The position numbers and the translations under genes were made by a program. The notes under the pieces were generated by a model, which saw nothing but the letters and a program-made list of their open reading frames with translations, was not told the origin of the DNA and did no database searches. DNA of 64,000 nucleotides from Eledone cirrhosa (lineage: Eukaryota): NCBI GenBank assembly GCA_964016885.1, contig OZ024755.1, positions 20,398,001-20,462,000 of the forward strand, read 5' to 3'. Shown piece after piece: positions 3,150 to 62,280 of this stretch (its first letter is position 1; each line of letters opens with the position of its first letter).

Positions 3150-3484
3150 GGCTGTCCGCTCGTTATCGAGTATGGCCATTGCACGATATAACATTAATTA
3201 TCAATTAATTTTATCGTGAAATGCCTGTGCGTGAAGATTATATTTAAAGTGAGGAAAGACTGCGCACCGAGCCAAACCCACTCTCTGAGCGACAGTAGCT
3301 ATAACCTTAAAAGAAGAAAAGATCAACATCATCGGTAACTACTGAGCCGCAGGTTTTATATCGGAGTTATCCCAGTTTCCTGGGTTGCCTTCTAGAAGAA
3401 TGCCCTGCCAAAAGCTAGGGTTCCTTCTCTCCCTGTGGTTTAACCGCGTGATCTGGTATTCAGTTCGATTATTTCTATTTCTAT

Positions 3485-3532
<48 letters not shown>

Positions 3533-4633: not shown

Positions 4634-4847
4634 TAGGAAAAGATTCAGGACTCCAACGGCTGAGCTCCGGCCGTTTCGATAGCTAGATCCGAACCGAATT
4701 TTTCGGATCTAGCTGTCGAAAACGGCCGGAGCTCAGCTGTCGGAGTCCTGAATCTTTTTCCATTACCCACTCTACTACTCTATGTATTGAGTACTTTGGT
4801 GCGTTATGGTCCACCTGGTATCTTAGTATCTTACCATACCCTCTTTG

Positions 4848-4849
<2 letters not shown>
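4634..4849 (+). mobile_element. Fold-back element family C (long hairpin plus unique tail ending at (TA)n)
   Basis: Inverted arms ggaaaagattcaggac...gatccgaa / ttcggatc...gtcctgaatctttttcc, followed by a tail (ttacccactctacta...gttatggtccacctgg) shared with five other loci. Confidence 0.85.
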
Positions 4850-6840: not shown

Positions 6841-6956
6841 CGCTTACGGCACCTAGGGTCCCCAAGCGGTCACCCATCTAAGTACTAACTAGGCTCTACG
6901 TTGCTTAACTTCGGTGATCGAACGAGAACCGGTGTTTTCAGCGTGATATGGCCGTA
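6841..6956 (-). pseudogene. 5S rRNA retroposed pseudogene, about 3 nt 5'-truncated
   Basis: Minus strand tacggccatatcacgctgaaaacaccggttctcgttcgatcaccgaagttaagcaacg...ttagtacttagatgggtgaccgcttggg...gtgccgtaagc is a recognisable eukaryotic 5S sequence. It is followed by A16 and flanked by the 19-bp TSD tatttgcttttacattaat (6792-6810 and 6955-6973). Confidence 0.95.
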
Positions 6957-7084
6957 TTTGCTTTTACATTAATAAAGGGTAAAGAAACCGATCGTCATCA
7001 GATGGGACCGAGAAAATAATGTTTCCACTGATAAAATTATCTGTCGATTGGAACTTCTACCAAAAGAAGTGACGTGAACTAAGG

Positions 7085-21872: not shown

Positions 21873-21911
21873 TCTTTTTAATGCAAATATAGATTCTAAA
21901 ATAAGCATTGG

Positions 21912-22823
21912 GTTAGTAATTGTAAGGGATTGCTATAGCTGATTCTAACATAAGGATGAGGCTAGAAATTGTAAGGGATTGCTATAGATGATTCTAACAT
22001 AAGGATGAGGCTAGTAATTGTAAGGGATTGCTATAGATGATTCTAACATAAGGATGAGGCTAGTAATTGTAAGGGATTGCTATAGCTGATTCTAACATAA
22101 GGATGAGGCTAGAAATTGTAAGGGATTGCTATAGCTGATTCTAACATAAGGATGAGGCTAGTAATTGTAAGGGATTGCTATAGCTGATTCTAACATAAGG
22201 ATGAGGCTAGAAATTGTAGGGGATTACTATAGATGATTCTAACATAAGGATGAGGCTAGAAATTGTAGGGGATTGCTATAGATGATTCTAACATAAGGAT
22301 GAGGTTAGAAATTGTAAGGGATTGCTATAGCTGATTCTAACATAAGGATGAGGCTAGAAATTGTAAGGGATTGCTATAGCTGATTCTAACATAAGGATGA
22401 GGCTAGAAATTGTAAGGGATTGCTATAGCTGATTCTAACATAAGGATGAGGCTAGAAATTGTAAGGGATTGCTATAGCTGATTCTAACATAAGGATGAGG
22501 CTAAAAATTGTAAGAGATTGCTATAGATGATTCTAACAGACATGAGGCTAGAAATTGTAGGGGATTGCTATAAATGATCGTAATATAGGGATTAAGCTTG
22601 AAATTGTAAGATATTGCTATAGCTGATTCTAACAGATATTAAGTTAGTAATTGTAAGGGGATTGCTATAAATTATTGTAATATAGAGATTAGGCTTGTAA
22701 TTGTAAGGGATTGCTATAGCTAATTCTAACAGATATTAAGTTAGTAATTGTAAGGGATTGCTATAGATGATTCTAACATAGACATTAGGTTAGAAATTGT
22801 AAGGGATTGCTATAGATGATTCT
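21912..22823. repeat. 49-bp minisatellite, about 18 copies
   Basis: Unit gctagaaattgtaagggattgctatagctgattctaacataaggatgag; homogeneous on the left and degenerate on the right. Confidence 0.95.
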
Positions 22824-26941: not shown

Positions 26942-26943
<2 letters not shown>

Positions 26944-27125
26944 CGAAGGAAGTGTGGTAAGGAACCAGATGGACCATAACGCACAAGAGTACTCAATACT
27001 TAGGGTAGTAGAGTGGGTAATAGGAAAATGTGGAGTGGGTCTAGAAATAGCCATTTCGACGGCTATTTCTAGACTGAGATAGCCGTCGAAACGGCTTGAG
27101 CTCTGCCGTCGGGGTTATACATTTT

Positions 27126-27129
<4 letters not shown>
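26942..27129 (-). mobile_element. Fold-back element family C, rearranged copy within (TA)n
   Basis: Reverse complement of the family C tail, with (TA)n on both sides and an extra internal hairpin gtctagaaatagcc / ggctatttctagac. Confidence 0.85.
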
Positions 27130-27713: not shown

Positions 27714-30700
27714 TGGTCATAAGTTACAGCTTATTGGTAGCTTATAGGCAAGTCCAACACTGACTACACTGATACTATGGATGGCGTGTGGTCATAAGCT
27801 ATAGCTTATAGGCAAGTCCAGCACTGACTACACTGATACTATGGATGGCGTGTGGTCATAAGCTATAGCTTATAGGCAAGTCCAGCACTGACTACACTGA
27901 TACTATGGATGGCGTGTGGTCATAAGCTATAGCTTATAGGCAAGTCCAACACTGACTACACTGATACTATGGATGGCGTGTGGTCATAAGCTATAGCTTA
28001 TAGGCAAGTCCAACACTGACTACACTGATACTATGGATGGCGTGTGGTCATAAGCTATAGCTTATAGGCAAGTCCAGCACTGACTACACTGATACTATGG
28101 ATGGCGTGTGGTCATAAGCTATAGCTTATAGGCAAGTCCAGCACTGGCTACACTGATACTATGGATGGCGTGTGGTCATAAGCTATAGCTTATAGGCAAG
28201 TCCAGCACTGACTACACTGATACTATGGATGGCGTGTGGTCATAAGCTATAGCTTATAGGCAAGTCCAGCACTGGCTACACTGATACTATGGATGGCGTG
28301 TGGTCATAAGCTATAGCTTATAGGCAAGTCCAGCACTGACTACACTGATACTATGGATGGCGTGTGGTCATAAGCTATAGCTTATAGGCAAGTCCAGCAC
28401 TGACTACACTGATACTATGGATGGCGTGTGGTCATAAGCTATAGCTTATAGGCAAGTCCAACACTGGCTACACTGATGCTATGGATGGCGTGTGGTCATA
28501 AGCTATAGCTTATAGGCAAGTCCAGGACTGACTACACTGATACTATGGATGGCGTGTGGTCATAAGCTATAGCGTATAGGCAAGTCCAACAATGGCTACA
28601 CTGATGCCGTGGATGGCGTGTGGTCATAAGCTATAGCTTATAGGCAAGTCCAGCACTGACTACACTGATACTATGGATGGCGTGTGGTCATAAGCTATAG
28701 CTTATAGGCAAGTCCAACACTGGCTACACTGATGCTATGGATGGCGTGTGGTCATAAGCTATAGCTTATAGGCAAGTCCAGCACTGACTACACTGATACT
28801 ATGGATGGCGTGTGGTCATAAGCTATAGCGTATAGGCAAGTCCAACAATGGCTACACTGATGCCGTGGATGGCGTGTGGTCATAAGCTATAGCTTATAGG
28901 CAAGTCCAGCACTGACTACACTGATACTATGGATGGCGTGTGGTCATAAGCTATAGCTTATAGGCAAGTCCAGCACTGACTACACTGATACTATGGATGG
29001 CGTGTGGTCATAAGCTATAGCTTATAGGCAAGTCCAGCACTGACTACACTGATACTATGGATGGCGTGTGGTCATAAGCTATAGCTTATAGGCAAGTCCA
29101 GCACTGACTACACTGATACCATGGATGGCGTGTGGTCATAAGCTATAGCTTATAGGCAAGTCCAGCACTGACTACACTGATACTATGGATGGCGTGTGGT
29201 CATAAGCTATAGCTTATAGGCAAGTCCAACACTGGCTACACTGATGCTATGGATGGCGTGTGGTCATAAGCTATAGCTTATAGGCAAGTCCAGCACTGAC
29301 TACACTGATACTATGGATGGCGTGTGGTCATAAGCTATAGCTTATAGGCAAGTCCAGCACTGACTACACTGATACTATGGATGGCGTGTGGTCATAAGCT
29401 ATAGCGTATAGGCAAGTCCAACAATGGCTACACTGATACTATGGATGGCGTGTGGTCATAAGCTATAGCTTATAGGCAAGTCCAACACTGGCTACACTGA
29501 TGCTATGGATGGCGTGTGGTCATAAGCTATAGCTTATAGGCAAGTCCAACACTGACTACACTGATACTATGGATGGCGTGTGGTCATAAGCTATAGCTTA
29601 TAGGCAAGTCCAGCACTGACTACACTGATACTATGGATGGCGTGTGGTCATAAGCTATAGCTTATAGGCAAGTCCAACACTGGCTACACTGATTCTATGG
29701 ATGGCGTGTGGTCATAAGCTATAGCTTATAGGCAAGTCCAACACTGACTACACTGATACTATGGATGGCGTGTGGTCATAAGCTATAGCTTATAGGCAAG
29801 TCCAGCACTGACTACACTGATACTATGGATGGCGTGTGGTCATAAGCTATAGCTTATAGGCAAGTCCAGCACTGACTACACTGATACTATGGATGGCGTG
29901 TGGTCATAAGCTATAGCTTATAGGCAAGTCCAGCACTGGCTACACTGATACTATGGATGGCGTGTGGTCATAAGCTATAGCTTATAGGCAAGTCCAGCAC
30001 TGACTACACTGATACTATGGATGGCGTGTGGTCATAAGCTATAGCTTATAGGCAAGTCCAACACTGGCTACACTGATACTATGGATGGCGTGTGGTCATA
30101 AGCTATAGCTTATAGGCAAGTCCAACACTGGCTACACTGATGCTATGGATGGCGTGTGGTCATAAGCTATAGCTTATAGGCAAGTCCAACACTGACTACA
30201 CTGATACTATGGATGGCGTGTGGTCATAAGCTATAGCTTATAGGCAAGTCCAGCACTGACTACACTGATACTATGGATGGCGTGTGGTCATAAGCTATAG
30301 CTTATAGGCAAGTCCAACACTGGCTACACTGATGCTATGGATGGCGTGTGGTCATAAGCTATAGCTTATAGGCAAGTCCAACACTGACTACACTGATACT
30401 ATGGATGGCGTGTGGTCATAAGCTATAGCTTATAGGCAAGTCCAGCACTGACTACACTGATACTATGGATGGCGTGTGGTCATAAGCTATAGCTTATAGG
30501 CAAGTCCAACACTGGCTACACTGATGCTATGGATGGCGTGTGGTCATAAGCTATAGCTTATAGGCAAGTCCAACACTGACTACACTGATACTATGGATGG
30601 CGTGTGGTCATAAGCTATAGCTTATAGGCAAGTCCAGCACTGACTACACTGATGCTATGGATGGCGTGTGGTCATAAGCTATAGCTTATAGGCAAGTCCA

Positions 30701-32371
30701 ACACTGGCTACACTGATGCTATGGATGGCGTGTGGTCATAAGCTATAGCTTATAGGCAAGTCCAGCACTGACTACACTGATACTATGGATGGCGTGTGGT
30801 CATAAGCTATAGCTTATAGGCAAGTCCAGCACTGACTACACTGATGCTATGGATGGCGTGTGGTCATAAGCTATAGCTTATAGGCAAGTCCAGCACTGAC
30901 TACACTGATGCCGTGGATGGCGTGTGGTCATAAGCTATAGCTTATAGGCAAGTCCAACACTGACTACACTGATGCTATGGATGGCGTGTGGTCATAAGCT
31001 ATAGCTTATAGGCAAGTCCAGCACTGACTACACTGATACTATGGATGGCGTGTGGTCATAAGCTATAGCTTATAGGCAAGTCCAGCACTGACTACACCGA
31101 TGCCATGGATAGCGTGTGGTCATAAGCTATAGCTTATAGGCAAGTCCAGCACTGACTACACTGATACCATGGATGGCGTGTGGTCATAAGCTATAGCTTA
31201 TAGGCAAGTCCAACAATGGCTACACTGATACTATGGATGGCGTGTGGTCATAAGCTATAGCTTATAGGCAAGTCCAACACTGACTACACTGATACTATGG
31301 ATGGCGTGTGGTCATAAGCTATAGCTTATAGGCAAGTCCAGCACTGACTACACTGATACTATGGATGGCGTGTGGTCATAAGCTATAGCTTATAGGCAAG
31401 TCCAACACTGACTACACTGATACTATGGATGGCGTGTGGTCATAAGCTATAGCTTATAGGCAAGTCCAACACTGACTACACTGATACTATGGATGGCGTG
31501 TGGTCATAAGCTATAGCTTATAGGCAAGTCCAGCACTGACTACACTGATACTATGGATGGCGTGTGGTTATAAGCTATAGCTTATAGGCAAGTCCAGCAC
31601 TGACTACACTGATACTATGGATGGCGTGTGGTCATAAGCTATAGCTTATAGGCAAGTCCAGCACTGACTACACTGATACTATGGATGGCGTGTGGTTATA
31701 AGCTATAGCTTATAGGCAAGTCCAGCACTGACTACACTGATACTATGGATGGCGTGTGGTCATAAGCTATAGCTTATAGGCAAGTCCAGCACTGGCTACA
31801 CTGATGCCGTGGATGGCGTGTGGTCATAAGCTATAGCTTATAGGCAAGTCCAACACTGACTACACTGATGCTATGGATGGCGTGTGGTCATAAGCTATAG
31901 CTTATAGGCAAGTCCAACACTGACTACACTGATACTATGGATGGCGTGTGGTCATAAGCTATAGCTTATAGGCAAGTCCAGCACTGGCTACACTGATACT
32001 ATGGATGGCGTGTGGTCATAAGCTATAGCTTATAGGCAAGTCCAGCACTGACTACACTGATACTATGGATGGCGTGTGGTCATAAGCTATAGCTTATAGG
32101 CAAGTCCAACACTGACTACACTGATACTATGGATGGCGTGTGGTCATAAGCTATAGCTTATAGGCAAGTCCAGCACTGACTACACTGATACTATGGATGG
32201 CGTGTGGTCATAAGCTATAGCTTATAGGCAAGTCCAGCACTGACTACACTGATACTATGGATGGCGTGTGGTCATAAGCTATAGCTTATAGGCAAGTCCA
32301 ACACTGACTACACTGATACTATGGATGGCGTGTGGTCATAAGCTATAGCTTATAGGCAAGTCCAGCACTGA
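27714..32371. repeat. 64-bp satellite array, about 73 copies
   Basis: Unit tggtcataagctatagcttataggcaagtccaRcactgRctacactgatRctatggatggcgtg; highly homogeneous; contains the 16-bp palindrome ataagctatagcttat. Confidence 0.98.
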
Positions 32372-41413: not shown

Positions 41414-41833
41414 ATATATATATATGTTTTATATAAATATATATATACATGTTTTATATATATATATATGTTTTATATATATATATATATATATGTGTTA
41501 TATATATATATACACATATATATACACATATGTATATATATATATATAATCAAGGTTTAGCAAATAAGAAAAAGTTTCAAAATAATTTTTTTCAAATTCA
41601 CTGTACTCACTATGGTTACCTTTACCGAATCGGTTTCGAGTCTCAAAAATAAATGGACAGTCCTTGCGGCCTTCCATTGCAAAGATAAACTCTTGTCAGA
41701 AGGATCTTTTCACTCGTAGAATATAAAATTCCCGAGTTCAAATTACGAACTGGCGCTATTCAAAATTGTTCCCGGGATGAGAATGAATGATGTGGAAGCA
41801 ATTCTGTCCAGTGCCGTTATATATATATATATA

Positions 41834-42098
<265 letters not shown>

Positions 42099-46796: not shown

Positions 46797-46992
46797 GCCA
46801 ACAGTGGCAAGATACCAGGTGGACCATAACGCACCAGAGTACTCAATACTTAGGAGAGTAGAGTGGGTAATATGAAAAAGAGTCAGGACCCCCGACGGCT
46901 GAGCTCCGGCCGTTTCGACAGCTAGATCCGCGTTCGGATCGAGCTGTCGAAACGGCCGGAGTTCAGCTGTCGGGGTCCTGACTCTTTTCATA
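46797..46992 (-). mobile_element. Fold-back element family C
   Basis: Reverse-complement tail, then arms tatgaaaaagagtcaggacccc...gatccg-cgtt-cggatc...ggggtcctgactcttttcata. Confidence 0.88.
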
Positions 46993-48304: not shown

Positions 48305-51300
48305 GTGTGAGCTATAGTATAGACTACTCTATGTGTTGTAGTATAGTCTGTGTGGGCTATAGTATAGGCTACTCTACGGAATATAGTATAAGTTACTGTG
48401 TGGTTTATAGTATAGGCTGCTACTGTGTGGCTATAGTATAGGCTGCTACTGTGTGGTTTATAGTATAGGCTGCTACTGTGTGGTTTATAGTATAGGCTGC
48501 TACCGTGTAGTTTATAGTATCAGCTGCTACTGTGAGGTTTATAGTATAGGCTGCTAGTGTGTGTTTTATAGTATAGGCTGCAAGTGTGAGGTTTATAGTA
48601 TAGGCTGCTACTGTGTGGTTTATAGTATAAGCTGCTACTGTGAGGTTTATAGTATAGGCTGCTACTGTGAGGTTTATAGTATAGGCTGCTACTGTGTGGC
48701 TATAGTATAGGCTGCTACTCTGTCTTTTATAGTATAGGCTGCTACTGTGTGGCTATAGTATAGGCTGCTACTGTGTGGCTATAGTATAAGCTGCTACTGT
48801 GTGGTTTATAGTATAGGCTGCTATTGTGTGGTTTATAGTATAGGCTGCTATTGTGAGGTTTATAGTATATGCTGCTATTGTGTGGTTTATAGTATAGGCT
48901 ACTACTGTGTGGTTTATAGTATAGGCTGCTACTGTGAGGTTTATAGTATAGGCTGCTACTGTGAGGTTTATAGTATAGGCTGCTACTGTGTGGTTTATAG
49001 TATAAGCTGCTACTGTGAGGTTTATAGTATAGGCTGCTACTGTGAGGTTTATAGTATAGGCTGCTACTGTGTGGCTATAGTATAGGCACACAGTGTATTT
49101 TATAGTATAGGCTGCTACTGTGAGGTTTATAGTATAGGCTGCTACTGTGTGGCTATAGTATAGGCTGCTACTGTGTGGCTATAGTATAAGCTGCTACTGT
49201 GTGGTTTATAGTATAGGCTGCTATTGTGTGGTTTATAGTATAGGCTGCTATTGTGAGGTTTATAGTATAGGCTGCTATTGTGTGGTTTATAGTAAAAGCT
49301 GCTACTGTGAGCTTTATAGTATAGGCTGCAGCTATTGTGTGGTTTATAGTATAAGCTGCTACTGTGAGGTTTATAGTATAGGCTGCTATTGTGTGGTTTA
49401 TAGTATAGGCTACTATAGTGTGGTTTATAGTATAGGCTATATTGTGAGGTTTATAGTATAGGTTGCTACTGTGTGGTTTATAGTATAAGCTGCTACTGTG
49501 AGGTTTATAGTATAGGCTGCTATTGTGTGGTTTATAGTATAGGCTGCTACTGTGTGGTTTATAGTATAGGCTGCTACCGTGTAGTTTATAGTATAAGCTA
49601 CTACCGTGAGATTTATAGTATATGCTGCTATTGTGTGGTTTATAGTATAGGCTGCTATTGTGAGGTTTATAGTATAGGTTGCTACTGTGTGGTTTATAGT
49701 ATAAACTGCTACTGTGAGGTTTATAGTATAGGCTGCTGCTGTGTGGTTTATAGTATAGGCTGCTACTGTGTGGCTATAGTATAAGCTGCTACTGTGAGGT
49801 TTATAGTATAGGCTGCTACTGTGAGGTTTATAGTATAGGCTGCTACTGTGTGGTTTATAGTATAGGCTGCTACTGTGAGGTTTATAGTATAGGCTGCTAT
49901 TGTGTGGTTTATAGTATAGGCTGCTACTGTGAGGTTTATAGTATAGGCTTCTACAGTGTGGTTTATAGTATAGGCTGCTACTGTGAGGTTTATAGTATAG
50001 GCTGCTACTGTGTGGTTTATAGTATAAGCTGCTACTGTGAGGTTTATAGTATAGGTTGCTACTGTGAGGTTTATAGTATAGGCTGCTACTGTGAGGTTTA
50101 TAGTATAGGCTGCTATTGTGAAGTTTATAGTATAGGCTGCTACTGTGTGGTTTATAGTATAAGATGCTACTGTGAAGTTTATAGTATAGGCTGCTACTGT
50201 GAAGTTTATAGTATAGGCTGCTACTGTGAAGTTTATAGTATAGGCTGCTACTGTGTGGTTTATAGTATAGGCTGCTACTGTGTGGTTTATAGTATAGGCT
50301 GCTACCGTGTAGTTTATAGTATAAGCTGCTACTGTGAGGTTTATAGTATAGGCTGCTAGTGTGTATTTTATAGTATAGGCTGCTAGTGTGAGGTTTATAG
50401 TATAGGCTGCTACTTTGAGGTTTATAGTATAGGCTGCTACTGTGAGGTTTATAGTATAGGCTGCTACTGTGTGGCTATAGTATAGGCTGCTACTGTGTGG
50501 CTATAGTATAAGCTGCTACTGTGTGGTTTATAGTATAGGCTGCTATTGTGTGGTTTATAGTATAGGCTGCTATTGTGTGGTTTATAGTAAAAGCTGCTAC
50601 TGTGAGGTTTATAGTATAGGCTGCTGCTGTGTGGTTTATAGTATAAGCTGCTACTGTGAGGTTTATAGTATAGGCTGCTATTGTGTGGTTTATAGTATAG
50701 GCTGCTATTGTGAGGTTTATAGTATAGGCTGCTACTGTGTGGTTTATAGTATAGGCTGCTATTGTGAGGTTAATAGTATAGGCTGCTATTGTGTGGTTTA
50801 TAGTAAAAGCTGCTACTGTGAGGTTTATAGTATAGGCTGCTATTGTGTGGTTTATAGTATAGGCTGCTGCTGTGTGGTTTATAGTATAAGCTGCTACTGT
50901 GAGGTTTGTAGTATAGGCTGCTATTGTGTGGTTTATAGTATAGGCTACTATAGTGTGGTTTATAGTATAGGCTATATTGTGAGGTTTATAGTATAGGTTG
51001 CTACTGTGTGGTTTATAGTATAAGCTGCTACTGTGAGGTTTATAGTATAGGCTGCTACTGTGAGGTTTATAGTATAGGCTGCTATTGTGTGGTTTATAGT
51101 ATAGGCTGCTACTGTGTGGTTTATAGTATAGGCTGCTACCGTGTAGTTTATAGTATAAGCTACTACCGTGAGATTTATAGTATATGCTGCTATTGTGTGG
51201 TTTATAGTATAGGCTGCTATTGTGAGGTTTATAGTATAGGTTGCTACTGTGTGGTTTATAGTATAAGCTGCTACTGTGAGGTTTATAGTATAGGCTGCTG

Positions 51301-52732
51301 CTTTGTGGTTTATAGTATAGGCTGCTACTGTGTGGCTATAGTATAAGCTGCTACTGTGAGGTTTATAGTATAGGCTGCTACTGTGAGGTTTATAGTATAG
51401 GCTGCTACTGTGTGGTTTATAGTATAGGCTGCTACTGTAAGGTTTATAGTATAAGCTGCTACTGTGAGGTTTATAGTATAGGCTGCTATTGTGTGGTTTA
51501 TAGTATAGGCTGCTACTGTGAGGTTTATAGTATAGGCTTCTACAGTGTGGTTTATAGTATAGGCTGCTACTGTGAGGTTTATAGTATAGGCTGCTACTGT
51601 GTGGTTTATAGTATAAGCTGCTACTGTGAGGTTTATAGTATAGGCTGCTACCGTGTGGTTTATAGTATAGGCTGCTACCGTGTAGTTTATAGTATAAGCT
51701 GCTACTGTGAGGTTTATAGTATAGGCTGCTATTGTGAGGTTTATAGTATAGGTTGCTACTGTGAGGTTTATAGTATAGGCTGCTACTGTGTGGTTTATAG
51801 TATAAGCTGCTACTGTGTGGTTTATAGTATAGGCTGCTACCGTGTGGTTTATAGTATAAGCTGCTACTGTGAGGTTTATAGTATAGGCTGCTAGTGTGAG
51901 GTTTATAGTATAGGCTGCTACTGTGTGGTTTATAGTATAAGCTGCTACTTTGAGGTTTATAGTATAGGCTGCTACTGTGAGGTTTATAGTATAGGCTGCT
52001 ACTGTGTGGCTATAGTATAGGCTGCTACTGTGTGGCTATAGTATAAGCTGCTACTGTGTGGTTTATAGTATAGGCTGCTATTGTGTGGTTTATAGTATAG
52101 GCTGCTATTGTGTGGTTTATAGTAAAAGCTGCTACTGTGTGGTTTATAGTATAAGCTGCTACTGTGAGGTTTATAGTATAGGCTGCTATTGTGTGGTTTA
52201 TAGTATAGGCTGCTACTGTGAGGTTTATAGTATAGGCTGCTACTGTGTGGTTTATAGTATAGGCTGCTACTGTGAAGTTTATAGTATAGGGTGCTACTGT
52301 GAGGTTTATAGTATAGGCTGCTACTGTGTGGTTTATAGTATAAGCTGCTACTGTGAAGTTTATAGTATAGGCTGCTACTGTGAAGTTTATAGTATAGGCT
52401 GCTACTGTGAGGTTTATAGTATAGGCTGCTACTGTGTGGTTTATAGTATAAGCTGCTATTGTGTGGTTTATAGTATAGGCTGCTATTGTGTGGTTTATAG
52501 TATAGGCTGCTACTGTGAGGTTTATAGTATAGGCTGCTACTGTGAGGTTTATAGTATAAGCTGCTACTGTGAGGTTTATAGTATAGGCTGCTACTGTGTG
52601 GTTTATAGTATAGGCTGCTATTGTGTGGTTTATAGTATAGGCTGCTACTGTGAGGTTTATAGTATAGGCTGCTACTGTGAGGTTTATAGTATAGGCTGCT
52701 ACTGTGTGGTTTATAGTATAGGCTGCTATTGT
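48305..52732. repeat. 27-bp minisatellite array, about 160 copies
   Basis: Unit gtgWggtttatagtataggctgctact. Confidence 0.98.
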
Positions 52733-54203: not shown

Positions 54204-54795
54204 GTCAGGCTTCTGCCTGCTACTGGTTCCCTGTAACCTAGCGCAACCTGCTTAATGGTCGAGTTGTCGGCGACCTCACCGGCTCCCCACAAGACCCTGG
54301 TGTGGTCAGCTCAGGCTTCTGCCTGCTACTGGTTCCCTGTAACCTAGCGCAACCTGCTTAATGGTCGAGTTGTCGGCGACCTCACCGGCTCCCCACAAGA
54401 CCCTGGTGTGGTCAGCTCAGGCTTATGTCTGCTACTGGTACCATGTAACCTAGCGCAACCTGCTTAATGGTCGAGTTGTCGGCGACTTCACCGGCTCCCC
54501 ACAAGACCCTGGTGTGGTCAGCTCAGGCTTATGTCTGCTACTGGTACCATGTAACCTAGCGCAACCTGCTTAATGGTCGAGTTGTCGGCGACCTCACCGG
54601 CTCCCCACAAGACCCTGGTGTGGTCAGCTCAGGCTTATGTCTGCTACTGGTACCATGTAACCTAGCGCAACCTGCTTAATGGTCGAGTTGTCGGCGACTT
54701 CACCGGCTCCCCACAAGACCCTGGTGTGGTCAGCTCAGGCTTATGTCTGCTACTGGTACCATGTAACCTAGTACAACATGCTTTATAATCGAGTG
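54204..54795. repeat. 106-bp GC-rich tandem array, about 5.5 copies, homologous to the family D head
   Basis: tcaggctt recurs at 54205, 54311 and 54417; the unit aligns with the reverse complement of 2050-2145. Confidence 0.93.
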
Positions 54796-55217: not shown

Positions 55218-56287
55218 GTTCCTCCAACAAGAGCTACAAAGACTTAGATTGGATTGGATGGAGGTCAACCAGGAAGAGGTTCCTCCAACAAGGGCTATAA
55301 AGCCATAGATTGGATTGGGTGAGGTCAATCAGGAAGAGGTTCCTCCAACGGGAGCTATAAAACCATAGATTGGATTGGATGGAGGTCAACCAAGATGGAG
55401 TTCCTCCAACAAGGGCTAGAAAGCCATAGATTGGATTGGATGGAGGTCAACCAAGATGCAGTTCCTCCAACAAGGGCTAGAAAGCCATAGATTGGATGGA
55501 GGTCAACCAAGATGGAGTTCCTCCAACAAGGGCTAGAAAGCCATAGATTGGATTGGATGGAGGTCAACCAAGATGGAGTTCCTCCAACAAGGGCTAGAAA
55601 GCCATAGATTGGATTGGATGGAGGTCAACCAAGATGCAGTTCCTCCAACAAGGGCTAGAAAGCCATAGATTGGATTGGATGGAGGTCAACCAAGATTGAG
55701 TTCCTCCAACAAGGGCTAGAAAGCCATAGATTGGATTGGATGGAGGTCAACCAAGATTGAGTTCCTCCAACAAGGGCTAGAAAGCCATAGATTGGATTGG
55801 ATGGAGGTCAACCAAGATTGAGTTCCTCCAACAAGGGCTATAAAGCCATAGATTGGATTGGATGGAGGTCAACCAAGATTGAGTTCCTCCAACAAGGGCT
55901 AGAAAGCCATAGATTGGATTGGATGGAGGTCAACCAAGATTGAGTTCCTCCAACAAGGGCTATAAAGCCATAGATTGGATTGGATGGAGGTCAACCAAGA
56001 TTGAATTCCTCCAACAAGGGCTATAAAACCATAGATTGGATTGTATGGAGGTCAACCAAGATTGAATTCCTCCAACAAGGGCTAGAAAGCCATAGATTGG
56101 ATGGAGGTCAACCAAGATTGAATTCCTCCAACAAGGGCTAGAAAGCCATAGATTGGATTGGGTGAGGTCAACCAGGAAGGGGTTCCTCCAACAGGGGCTA
56201 GAAAGCCCTGGATCCGATTGGATGGAGGTCAATCAGGATGGGGTTCCTCCAACAAGAGGTAGAAGGCCCTGGATCCGATTGGATGGA
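55218..56287. repeat. 61-bp tandem array, about 17 copies
   Basis: Unit gttcctccaacaagggctagaaagccatagattggattggatggaggtcaaccaagatKga; some units lack one 5-bp ttgga. Confidence 0.95.
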
Positions 56288-57041: not shown

Positions 57042-57078
57042 CTCGACGGCTGTGCTCTTATCGTTTCGACAGCGAATT

Positions 57079-57126
<48 letters not shown>

Positions 57127-58245: not shown

Positions 58246-58274
<29 letters not shown>

Positions 58275-58276
<2 letters not shown>

Positions 58277-58479
58277 GGAACGAGTAGGACCCCGACGGCT
58301 GAGCTCAAGCCGTTTCGACGGCTAATTCTGAACTCAATTCTGTCCAGAATTAGCCGTCGAAACGGCTTGAGCTCAGCCGTCGGGGTCCTACTCGTTCCTA
58401 TTACCCACTCTACTACCCTAAGTATTGAGTACTTTGGTGTGTTATGGTCCACCTGGTTCCTTACCACATTTCCTCCGTT
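58275..58479 (+). mobile_element. Fold-back element family C, complete, within (TA)n
   Basis: Perfect arms of about 56 bp, taggaacgagtaggacccc...aattctg / cagaatt...ggggtcctactcgttccta, followed by the tail. Confidence 0.92.
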
Positions 58480-58562
58480 ATATATATATATATATATAGT
58501 GGTGGAACACTGGAAGGTAATATCCGTAGTGGTAGAGCACTCAGTCCAAGGGACGAGTTAGG

Positions 58563-58782
58563 TAGAAGTGGTTACACAACAGTTAGTTCACCATACCGAG
58601 AACAATTGTTTCGCCTTCGCGGATCTTCAGCAATATTGCCTGTGTGAAGTGACCGAGTTTCTGCGCATGCGCGTTCGTACGGTTGTCCTTCCTGTTCCTA
58701 TAACCATATACATCCCGAGCTGAAGATCCGCGAAGGCGAAACAATTGTTCTCGCTATGGAGAACTAATTGTTGTGTAACCAC

Positions 58783-58787
<5 letters not shown>
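58563..58787 (+). mobile_element. Penelope-like element terminus with inverted duplication; hammerhead motif at 58716-58753
   Basis: 69-bp arms at 58563-58631 and 58719-58787. Plus strand reads CGAG-CTGAAGA-TCCGCGAAGGC-GAAA-CAATTG-TT-CTCG, with stem I CGAG/CTCG, palindromic stem III and a weak stem II. Ends at (TA)n. Confidence 0.75.
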
Positions 58788-61622: not shown

Positions 61623-61788
61623 TAGGAAAAGAGTCAAAACCCCGACGGCTGAGCTCCGGCCATTTCGACAGCTAGATCTAGCTGTCGAAACGACCGCAGC
61701 TCAGCCGTCGGGGTCCTGACTCTTTTCCTATTACCCACTCTACTACCTTAAGTATCGAGTACTCTGATGCGTTATGGTCCACCTAGTA
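61623..61788 (+). mobile_element. Fold-back element family C with a loopless palindromic centre
   Basis: Centre tcgacagctagatctagctgtcga; tail truncated; (TA)n on the left. Confidence 0.88.
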
Positions 61789-62280
61789 TGGAAAATCGGT
61801 AATTTTTCTAGGTTTGCTCCGTTGATTTTTTTTAAAAACCAAAGTTTCGCCGGAGATATATAAGCAAAATTTAATAAGCTGCGGCAGAGGTGGAGGCTGA
61901 AAAATTAATAAGTAGGGTTAACGATTATTGGAGATCCGTGAGTATATATAGAGTCATATATACACATTAGATGAATAATTGGTCGAACATTGGAGGAAAT
62001 CTGATCCATTGACATAAAAACGAACAAACAAGAAGCTGACATTATTCACACAAAGTTCAGTGACATCGATCATGATGTTTACAAAAGAGACAGAATAAGA
62101 CTCACTTCGGCCTGGGGTCGGTTTAGATTCGTAATATTACACACATTTACTGAAATATTATCTAATAATTTACTAAGCTGAAACTTTAAACGTTCTGTTT
62201 TAGGCCGAACGATGTACCGTCATGTAGAGCGTAAACTTCCGCAGAAGTTAAATCTGCAATTCAGTTTCAGTACCCAATGT

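Follow-up and report, generated by a model that had tools for sequence, protein, structure and literature searches.

Penelope-like elements (PLEs) are described, in the available portions of the reports cited here, as leaving inverted truncated copies with a one-sided tail and as using (TA)n targets (PMC8557442). The Hydra clade of PLEs is reported to insert into (TA)n, and its stated marks are RW(K/R), DKT, CxCx5C, CxxC and CxH together with the lack of CCHH (PMC8557442). Transcripts of PLEs start in the pseudo-LTR (PMC2377424), and a U3-A8 variant of the hammerhead ribozyme core has been reported for these elements (PMC4209133). In Anolis carolinensis the protein of the Poseidon PLE cuts and extends both target strands, and reverse transcription (RT) begins at two internal sites, which flank the tail and lie downstream of the hammerhead cut; no RNA-seq reads were found to end at the ribozyme cut (PMC11167929). 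Self-priming on an antisense template has been proposed for rotifer PLEs (PMC3846280). The origin of the inverted ends, tails and pseudo-LTRs, and the role of the hammerhead, are given as open questions (PMC8557442, PMC2377424).

The window analysed here is a stretch of 64,000 nt from the 3.0 Gb genome of Eledone cirrhosa (assembly GCA_964016885.1, contig OZ024755.1, positions 20,398,001 to 20,462,000, forward strand). An earlier sequence-only reading had listed six copies of a fold-back repeat and a fragment near 57042, and all were recovered at those positions by BLAST with the copy at 58275-58479. The copy at 41834 matched at 97 %, 4647-4825 at 81 %, 46804-46987 at 79 %, 26943-27129 at 78 % and 61639-61787 at 75 % (all E≤5e-32, well above chance), while the fragment, a decayed 36-nt piece of an arm at 57044-57079, matched weakly (E 8e-4). 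Subfamily A is represented by the copy at 58275 and by a solo arm with tail at 41833-41969 (plus strand), which starts at +1/+2 and has no inverted arm. The older subfamily B consists of hairpins with tails at 4634-4848 (plus strand), at 46797-46992 (minus strand; tail end altered) and at 61623-61790 (plus strand; tail shortened at about +120). The copy at 26942-27129 (minus strand) belongs to a third haplotype group (A3) and has an extra short inverted piece in its direct arm. The conserved tail, the solo copy, the extra inverted piece and the variable apex were therefore all as first described, and identity between the arms of one copy was high (55/55, 51/56, 51/54 and 49/54). The further claim that arms differ between copies applied across subfamilies, where differences are large (the 58275 arm is identical to arms of the other three hairpin copies at 43-44 of 52-55 positions), but hardly among 4634, 46797 and 61623, in which arms of different copies, identical at 46-51 of 54-55 positions, come close to the likeness seen within a copy. 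Contact with TA runs, claimed for every copy, was seen for some ends and not for others: 4634 and 61623 have a long TA run on one side only, and 46797 has short TA stretches with no long run. Five tandem arrays are also present in the window, at 21892-22823 (49 bp×19), 27738-32371 (64 bp×72), 48394-52732 (27 bp×161), 54205-54794 (106 bp×5.6) and 55218-56287 (61 bp×18). An Rfam scan of the window detected no hammerhead, and returned a single 5S rRNA-like sequence (6841-6959, minus strand, 99 bits), one marginal tRNA match and microsatellite noise.

Positions within the repeat are numbered from +1, the A of a TTAGT motif in the loop of hammerhead stem II (L096:4757, window position 58341). The copy at 58275 lies between a (TA)13 target run on the left (58251-58276) and a (TA)10 target run on the right (58479-58498). 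It consists of an inverted tail-less arm extending from +58 back to about +1/-4 (58275-58338, minus strand), which is read as cDNA from the proximal start site; a copy-specific apex joint between the arms (58339-58341); a direct arm corresponding to +2 to +58 of a PLE pseudo-LTR (58342-58398, plus strand); and an 80-nt tail between two fixed 3' ends (58399-58478, plus strand). The right-hand TA run is shared with a hairpin and tail of a second PLE family (F2; 58499-58787, minus strand). Longer genomic F2 copies continue into pieces of an ORF whose product shares about 26-43 % identity with the protein of the first family. A search for an empty (TA)n site among DNA contigs gave no contig spanning the locus.

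Within the direct arm, 58349-58386 (plus strand) is the 3' half of a type I hammerhead, recognized from the fold of the whole motif in L096 and in long copies. This half contains the 3' strand of stem II, GAAA (58359-58362), stem III, the GUC cut triplet (58379-58381) and the 3' strand of stem I; the 5' core half is missing from the 58275 copy. L096 gives a three-stem type I fold with GAAA and GUC, for which the predicted cut follows +41, and whole hammerheads are carried by long copies while short copies have the 3' half only. Fold stability did not exceed that of shuffled sequences (z -0.36), and the minimum-energy structures of subfamily B and F2 sequences were not hammerhead-shaped. Among 87 ribozyme cores of long arms, a sample biased by the query, 40 had the U3-A8 core and 38 a C-A mismatch at the 3-8 pair. 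The mismatch occurs in many long copies among L031-L060, and this haplotype is nonetheless widespread.

One of 30 close copies (L009) extended upstream, and a search with that stretch led to long copies, from these to ORF pieces, and from these to head-to-tail arrays in which the unit measures about 3.53 kb and open frames span 784 codons. The direct arm and tail at 58275 match the junction of these tandem units at 95-97 %. In whole units the tail continues into a 5' UTR and then a 717-aa ORF, and intact ORFs are present in young tandem arrays. For subfamily B, the tail could be followed into a homologous 5' UTR and the start of an ORF, with no whole ORF linked to it. The 717-aa ORF carries a YRDD motif, and the top Foldseek match for its model (99 homologues, pLDDT 92.8) was TERT (3du5, E 2.5e-8). 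In the C-terminal domain Y..YIG, R, H, E and N are invariant in 100 of 100 aligned sequences; fold matches to this domain were weak, the best being T4 EndoII, Hpy188I and I-TevI (E 0.13-2.2), which are GIY-YIG enzymes. Pfam gave nothing relevant for the ORF pieces, the whole ORF or six homologues, and the PDB, searched by sequence and by profile, gave no match to the ORF. The motifs RWR and DKT are present (K in 70 and R in 27 of 100 sequences at the alignment position, T in 93 of 100), the CxCx5C linker and the CxxC and CxH motifs around E and N are conserved in the alignment, and CCHH is absent.

A single ORF with a telomerase-like RT and, at its C-terminus, a GIY-YIG-like domain (on invariant residues and weak fold matches), tandem units with pseudo-LTRs, an inverted 5'-truncated copy, a one-sided tail and a type I hammerhead in the pseudo-LTR together correspond to an EN+ PLE. 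The Hydra clade is indicated by RW(K/R), DKT, CxCx5C, CxxC/CxH, the lack of CCHH and insertion into (TA)n; the Neptune and Nematis clades were considered and dropped, as DKT, CxCx5C and the missing CCHH fit Hydra. As judged from sequence, with the clade assignment resting on motifs, the repeats are the pseudo-LTR end plus tail of an autonomous Hydra-clade PLE. It adds a new, very abundant element to a clade that is already known, and its insertion layout is known too; it is not a new element class. The suggestion of an undescribed non-autonomous class does not stand, since the sequence is pseudo-LTR and tail of an autonomous element, while the lead towards Penelope or a hammerhead proved correct, as longer copies reach both the hammerhead and the PLE ORF.

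To what extent the two arms share a history can be read from their variants. In 45 subfamily A pairs, mismatch between the arms was 3.3 % within copies and 7.8 % once arms were shuffled; 60 variants were shared, where about 10 would be expected. In 28 subfamily B pairs, mismatch was 11.2 % within copies compared with 12.2 % for shuffled arms, with 11 shared and 148 unshared variants. The two arms carried the same five-site haplotype in 64 of 76 pairs (mean 30 and at most 40 on shuffling); among the 12 pairs that did not, 11 differed at one site. Both arms thus derive from a single source lineage and have since decayed independently of each other, with no upkeep of pairing. The proposal that both arms arise in one insertion event is supported by the haplotype agreement, but subfamilies active at different times would agree too, so this agreement is no proof of a single RNA molecule. 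Selection for pairing, put forward as an alternative, is not supported by the subfamily B mismatches, which indicate independent decay of the arms. The sequence-only reading had set against itself the case of a few fixed subfamilies with invariant apices. Part of this case describes the data, as most shared arm variants recur as subfamily haplotypes, and part does not, as the apices are private to their copies. Two further copies with hairpin and tail, L005:1183 and L114:1305, are 72-85 % like subfamilies A and B and probably represent a further, older subfamily.

In a 390-kb sample 20 clusters were detected, two of them forming one long pair, which scales to roughly 150,000 insertions genome-wide, and ORF-linked forms were far outnumbered by short forms. 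Such a uniform 200-bp form at very high copy number, with ORF-linked forms so much rarer, would be expected of a self-propagating non-autonomous hairpin element (MITE- or SINE-like), perhaps kept paired by selection. However, 34 different apices were present among 36 scorable short copies genome-wide, confirming that apices are not inherited, the arms decay independently, and every subfamily continues into a 5' UTR and ORF start of its own; this explanation is largely refuted and we give it very little credence. A MITE or other TIR element would have inverted repeats at both outer ends and inherited internal sequence. Here there is no terminal inverted repeat at both outer ends, the tail lies outside the inverted repeat and the sequence is continuous with an RT ORF, in agreement with the first judgement that this is not a TIR MITE. 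Non-LTR retrozymes consist of head-to-tail units each with a whole hammerhead, whereas the short copies are head-to-head and contain the 3' half only. The short copies are likely to be dead on arrival. As a repeat family this is an ordinary, if very abundant, Hydra-clade PLE that would probably be filed, wrongly, as a MITE in a repeat library.

The 3' ends of the copies lie at +58 or +138, with TA next at each. Genome-wide, exact matches to the tail end pass into (TA)n in 21,839 cases and on into the 5' UTR in 306. Exactly one tail was found in 103 of 109 head-to-head pairs (none in four, both in two) and in 16 of 16 unselected pairs, taken from 39 evenly chosen 10-kb stretches plus the window. 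There is a step in contig depth at +1 and a fall beyond the tail; this depth is not copy number and is inflated by other subfamilies. We consider it probable that the repeats are Hydra-clade PLE pseudo-LTR ends and tails inserted into (TA)n as head-to-head partial copies, likely as two cDNAs of one event. In the proposed mechanism, the nuclease of the element would cut both strands of (TA)n, and RT would be primed from each target 3' end, at either of two internal sites on the RNA that are separated by 80 nt. The two cDNAs would be extended over about 58 and 138 nt to the RNA 5' end, run off there, acquire a few bases, untemplated or from snap-back, and be joined 3' end to 3' end. Joining of this kind would produce a hairpin with a tail on one side and an apex private to the copy, and occasional jumps of RT from the run-off end to another RNA position would produce composites.

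A second route from the same PLE origin is that one cDNA is made first and the other arm is then synthesized by fold-back or self-priming of that cDNA, or on an antisense template. Templating by fold-back was also proposed in the sequence-only reading. The sharing of subfamily haplotypes between arms and the short inverted repeats within several apices would be explained in this way, and arm ends no more than 2 nt apart (39 of 73 short pairs) and a longer tail arm (21 of 73) are both allowed. The tail-less arm, however, extends upstream beyond the tail arm by 3 nt or more in 13 of the 73 short pairs, by about 1 kb in L062 and L063, and by about 85 nt in the F2 copy in the window. It thus holds upstream sequence that is missing from the tail arm, which means that neither arm is a copy of the other. 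Copy-back would also have to end exactly at +58, and the starts at the sense-strand ribozyme cut described below point to a sense template. Plain fold-back synthesis is contradicted by these longer tail-less arms and by the single tail in nearly all pairs, and we regard this route to the second arm as improbable. Fold-back may still contribute, as many short apices are snap-back-like. At L122:1314-1610 an arm of subfamily A is joined head to head to one of subfamily B, each with its tail, and this chimera does not fit a single template.

Joining of two run-off cDNAs places emphasis on the common 5' stop. Of 41 unselected arms, 34 stop in an interval that opens 5 nt upstream of +1 and closes 10 nt downstream, and the stop at +1 is seen in two subfamilies that differ in sequence there. 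Arms of 58 and 138 nt share this one stop, so it is not a length limit. Genome-wide, 18,187 arms exactly match the 35-mer from +2, and 3,597 of these have the commonest 8-nt upstream continuation, which is an undercount of extended arms given that 11 of 30 arms reaching +2 run on upstream by eye; an earlier count of 847 long arms rested on a minor upstream variant and was misleading. The A at +1 is kept in 52 of 75 hairpin arms and the T upstream of it in 33 of 75. A splice acceptor at +2/+3 was excluded from the retention of this A. There was no clear signature of a cap-derived G at +1, and no match to a DPE by eye. The TTAGT motif at +1 resembles an initiator. Judged on this motif, on the start of PLE transcripts in the pseudo-LTR and on the same behaviour of ends at +1 and +42, transcription most likely begins at +1 within the pseudo-LTR. 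Two cDNAs could also have been made from longer read-through transcripts in which +1 is a strong RT stall or a point of RNA breakage, and a stop that is spread over about 15 nt, the retention of the upstream T, the arms that run on and the position of +1 within a large structured RNA are all in keeping with this. A stall would nevertheless be expected at the paired strand of stem II and not beyond it in the loop, composites restart repeatedly at exactly +1/+2, like the +42 ends, and PLE transcripts are reported to start in the pseudo-LTR (PMC2377424); a stall or breakage is therefore considered unlikely, and transcription start is preferred.

Composite copies were sought at 59 loci with a tail that continues into the 5' UTR; 37 of these exceed the fetched stretch and 22 show an inner junction (counts from script and by-eye reading, with L258 and L329 dropped as duplicates of L257 and L328). 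The next module starts at +1 to +5 in 11 of the 22 (10 by script, L260 by eye), and at +42 in six; in L275 it starts at +1 following a detour, and the other four have different starting points. L257, for example, is an inverted arm followed by 1-254, 1-254 and 1-144. Among 14 distinct subfamily B loci, read by eye, restarts were at +1/+2 in five, at +42 in one and further upstream in four, with none in four. Of the 22 arm ends between +17 and +120 in composite loci, seven fall at +39 to +45 (nominal p 4e-4; ends not all independent), and at L153:2280-2429 both arms start at +42 and each then passes into sequence from the ORF start. This class is minor among ordinary copies, with starts at +39 to +45 for 0 of 14 random or window tails and 4 of 40 bystander tails. 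Ends at +42 are best read as cleaved RNA ends, as they are located at the cut site predicted from the ribozyme, which suggests that the ribozyme cleaves in vivo. An end at +42 requires a transcript with the whole ribozyme, and read-through RNAs must therefore coexist with +1 RNAs.

Landing points of jumps recur near unit positions 232-262, 355-358, 586 and 956-959 (L256, L278-L305, L310), some with short A runs; AATAAA was not found near these recurrent points. L275 (G000:C2:356029000-356033500) contains seven near-identical 299-bp units, each made of unit 1-262 and 3474-3512, and ends with an arm and tail. It is a young satellite-like array made of PLE pieces.

The +1 and +42 ends could be parts of one replication cycle, a tentative proposal. 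The mRNA would start at +1 inside its own hammerhead, leaving the front copy uncuttable, and the far-end hammerhead would cut at +41, creating a 41-nt terminal redundancy. RT would start near the 5' end and run off; this strong-stop product would normally fail, leaving a 200-bp hairpin, but could jump to the redundant 3' end and so regenerate pseudo-LTRs and tandem arrays. If such a cycle operates, the PLE ribozyme would have an in-vivo function. The natural insertions yield predictions at base level, namely RT starts at +58 and +138, RNA 5' ends lying at +1 and +42, and jumps between templates that set out from these ends. The run-off site, the jumps and the ribozyme-cut ends bear on PLE replication, and the jumps suggest a route to pseudo-LTRs. 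A search of the openly accessible literature found no paper on PLE template jumps, strong-stop products, a fixed run-off site or ribozyme-cut ends.

Comparison with described systems, as presented in the available portions of the reports, shows several partial parallels. Poseidon of Anolis carolinensis resembles the element described here in its two-start geometry and AT-rich target but belongs to another clade, and its starts are in the ORF rather than the 5' UTR (PMC11167929); the available part of that report describes neither template jumps nor a fixed 5' stop. Penelope of Drosophila virilis likewise has a transcript start inside the upstream pseudo-LTR, upstream of the tail repeat, as well as tandem and inverted structures (PMC2377424). 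Non-LTR retrozymes are, similarly, short non-coding sequences derived from PLE pseudo-LTRs with a type I hammerhead, but they form head-to-tail tandem units with whole ribozymes, in contrast to the dispersed head-to-head pairs with only the 3' half seen here (bioRxiv 10.64898/2026.07.22.740005). The closest agreement is with the Hydra clade, which shares the single ORF with RT followed by GIY-YIG, the hammerhead in the pseudo-LTR, insertion into (TA)n (26 of the 27 families listed), the occurrence of tandem copies and of inverted truncated ones, and the one-sided tail (PMC8557442). Compared by description, the unit here is larger (3.53 kb, against mostly under 3 kb in the families of that report), and the tail is longer (80 nt, against 30-40 bp). 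Unlike those families, the ribozyme here has long stems II and III with a U3-A8 or C-A core, and most copies are 200-bp run-offs with one 5' stop.
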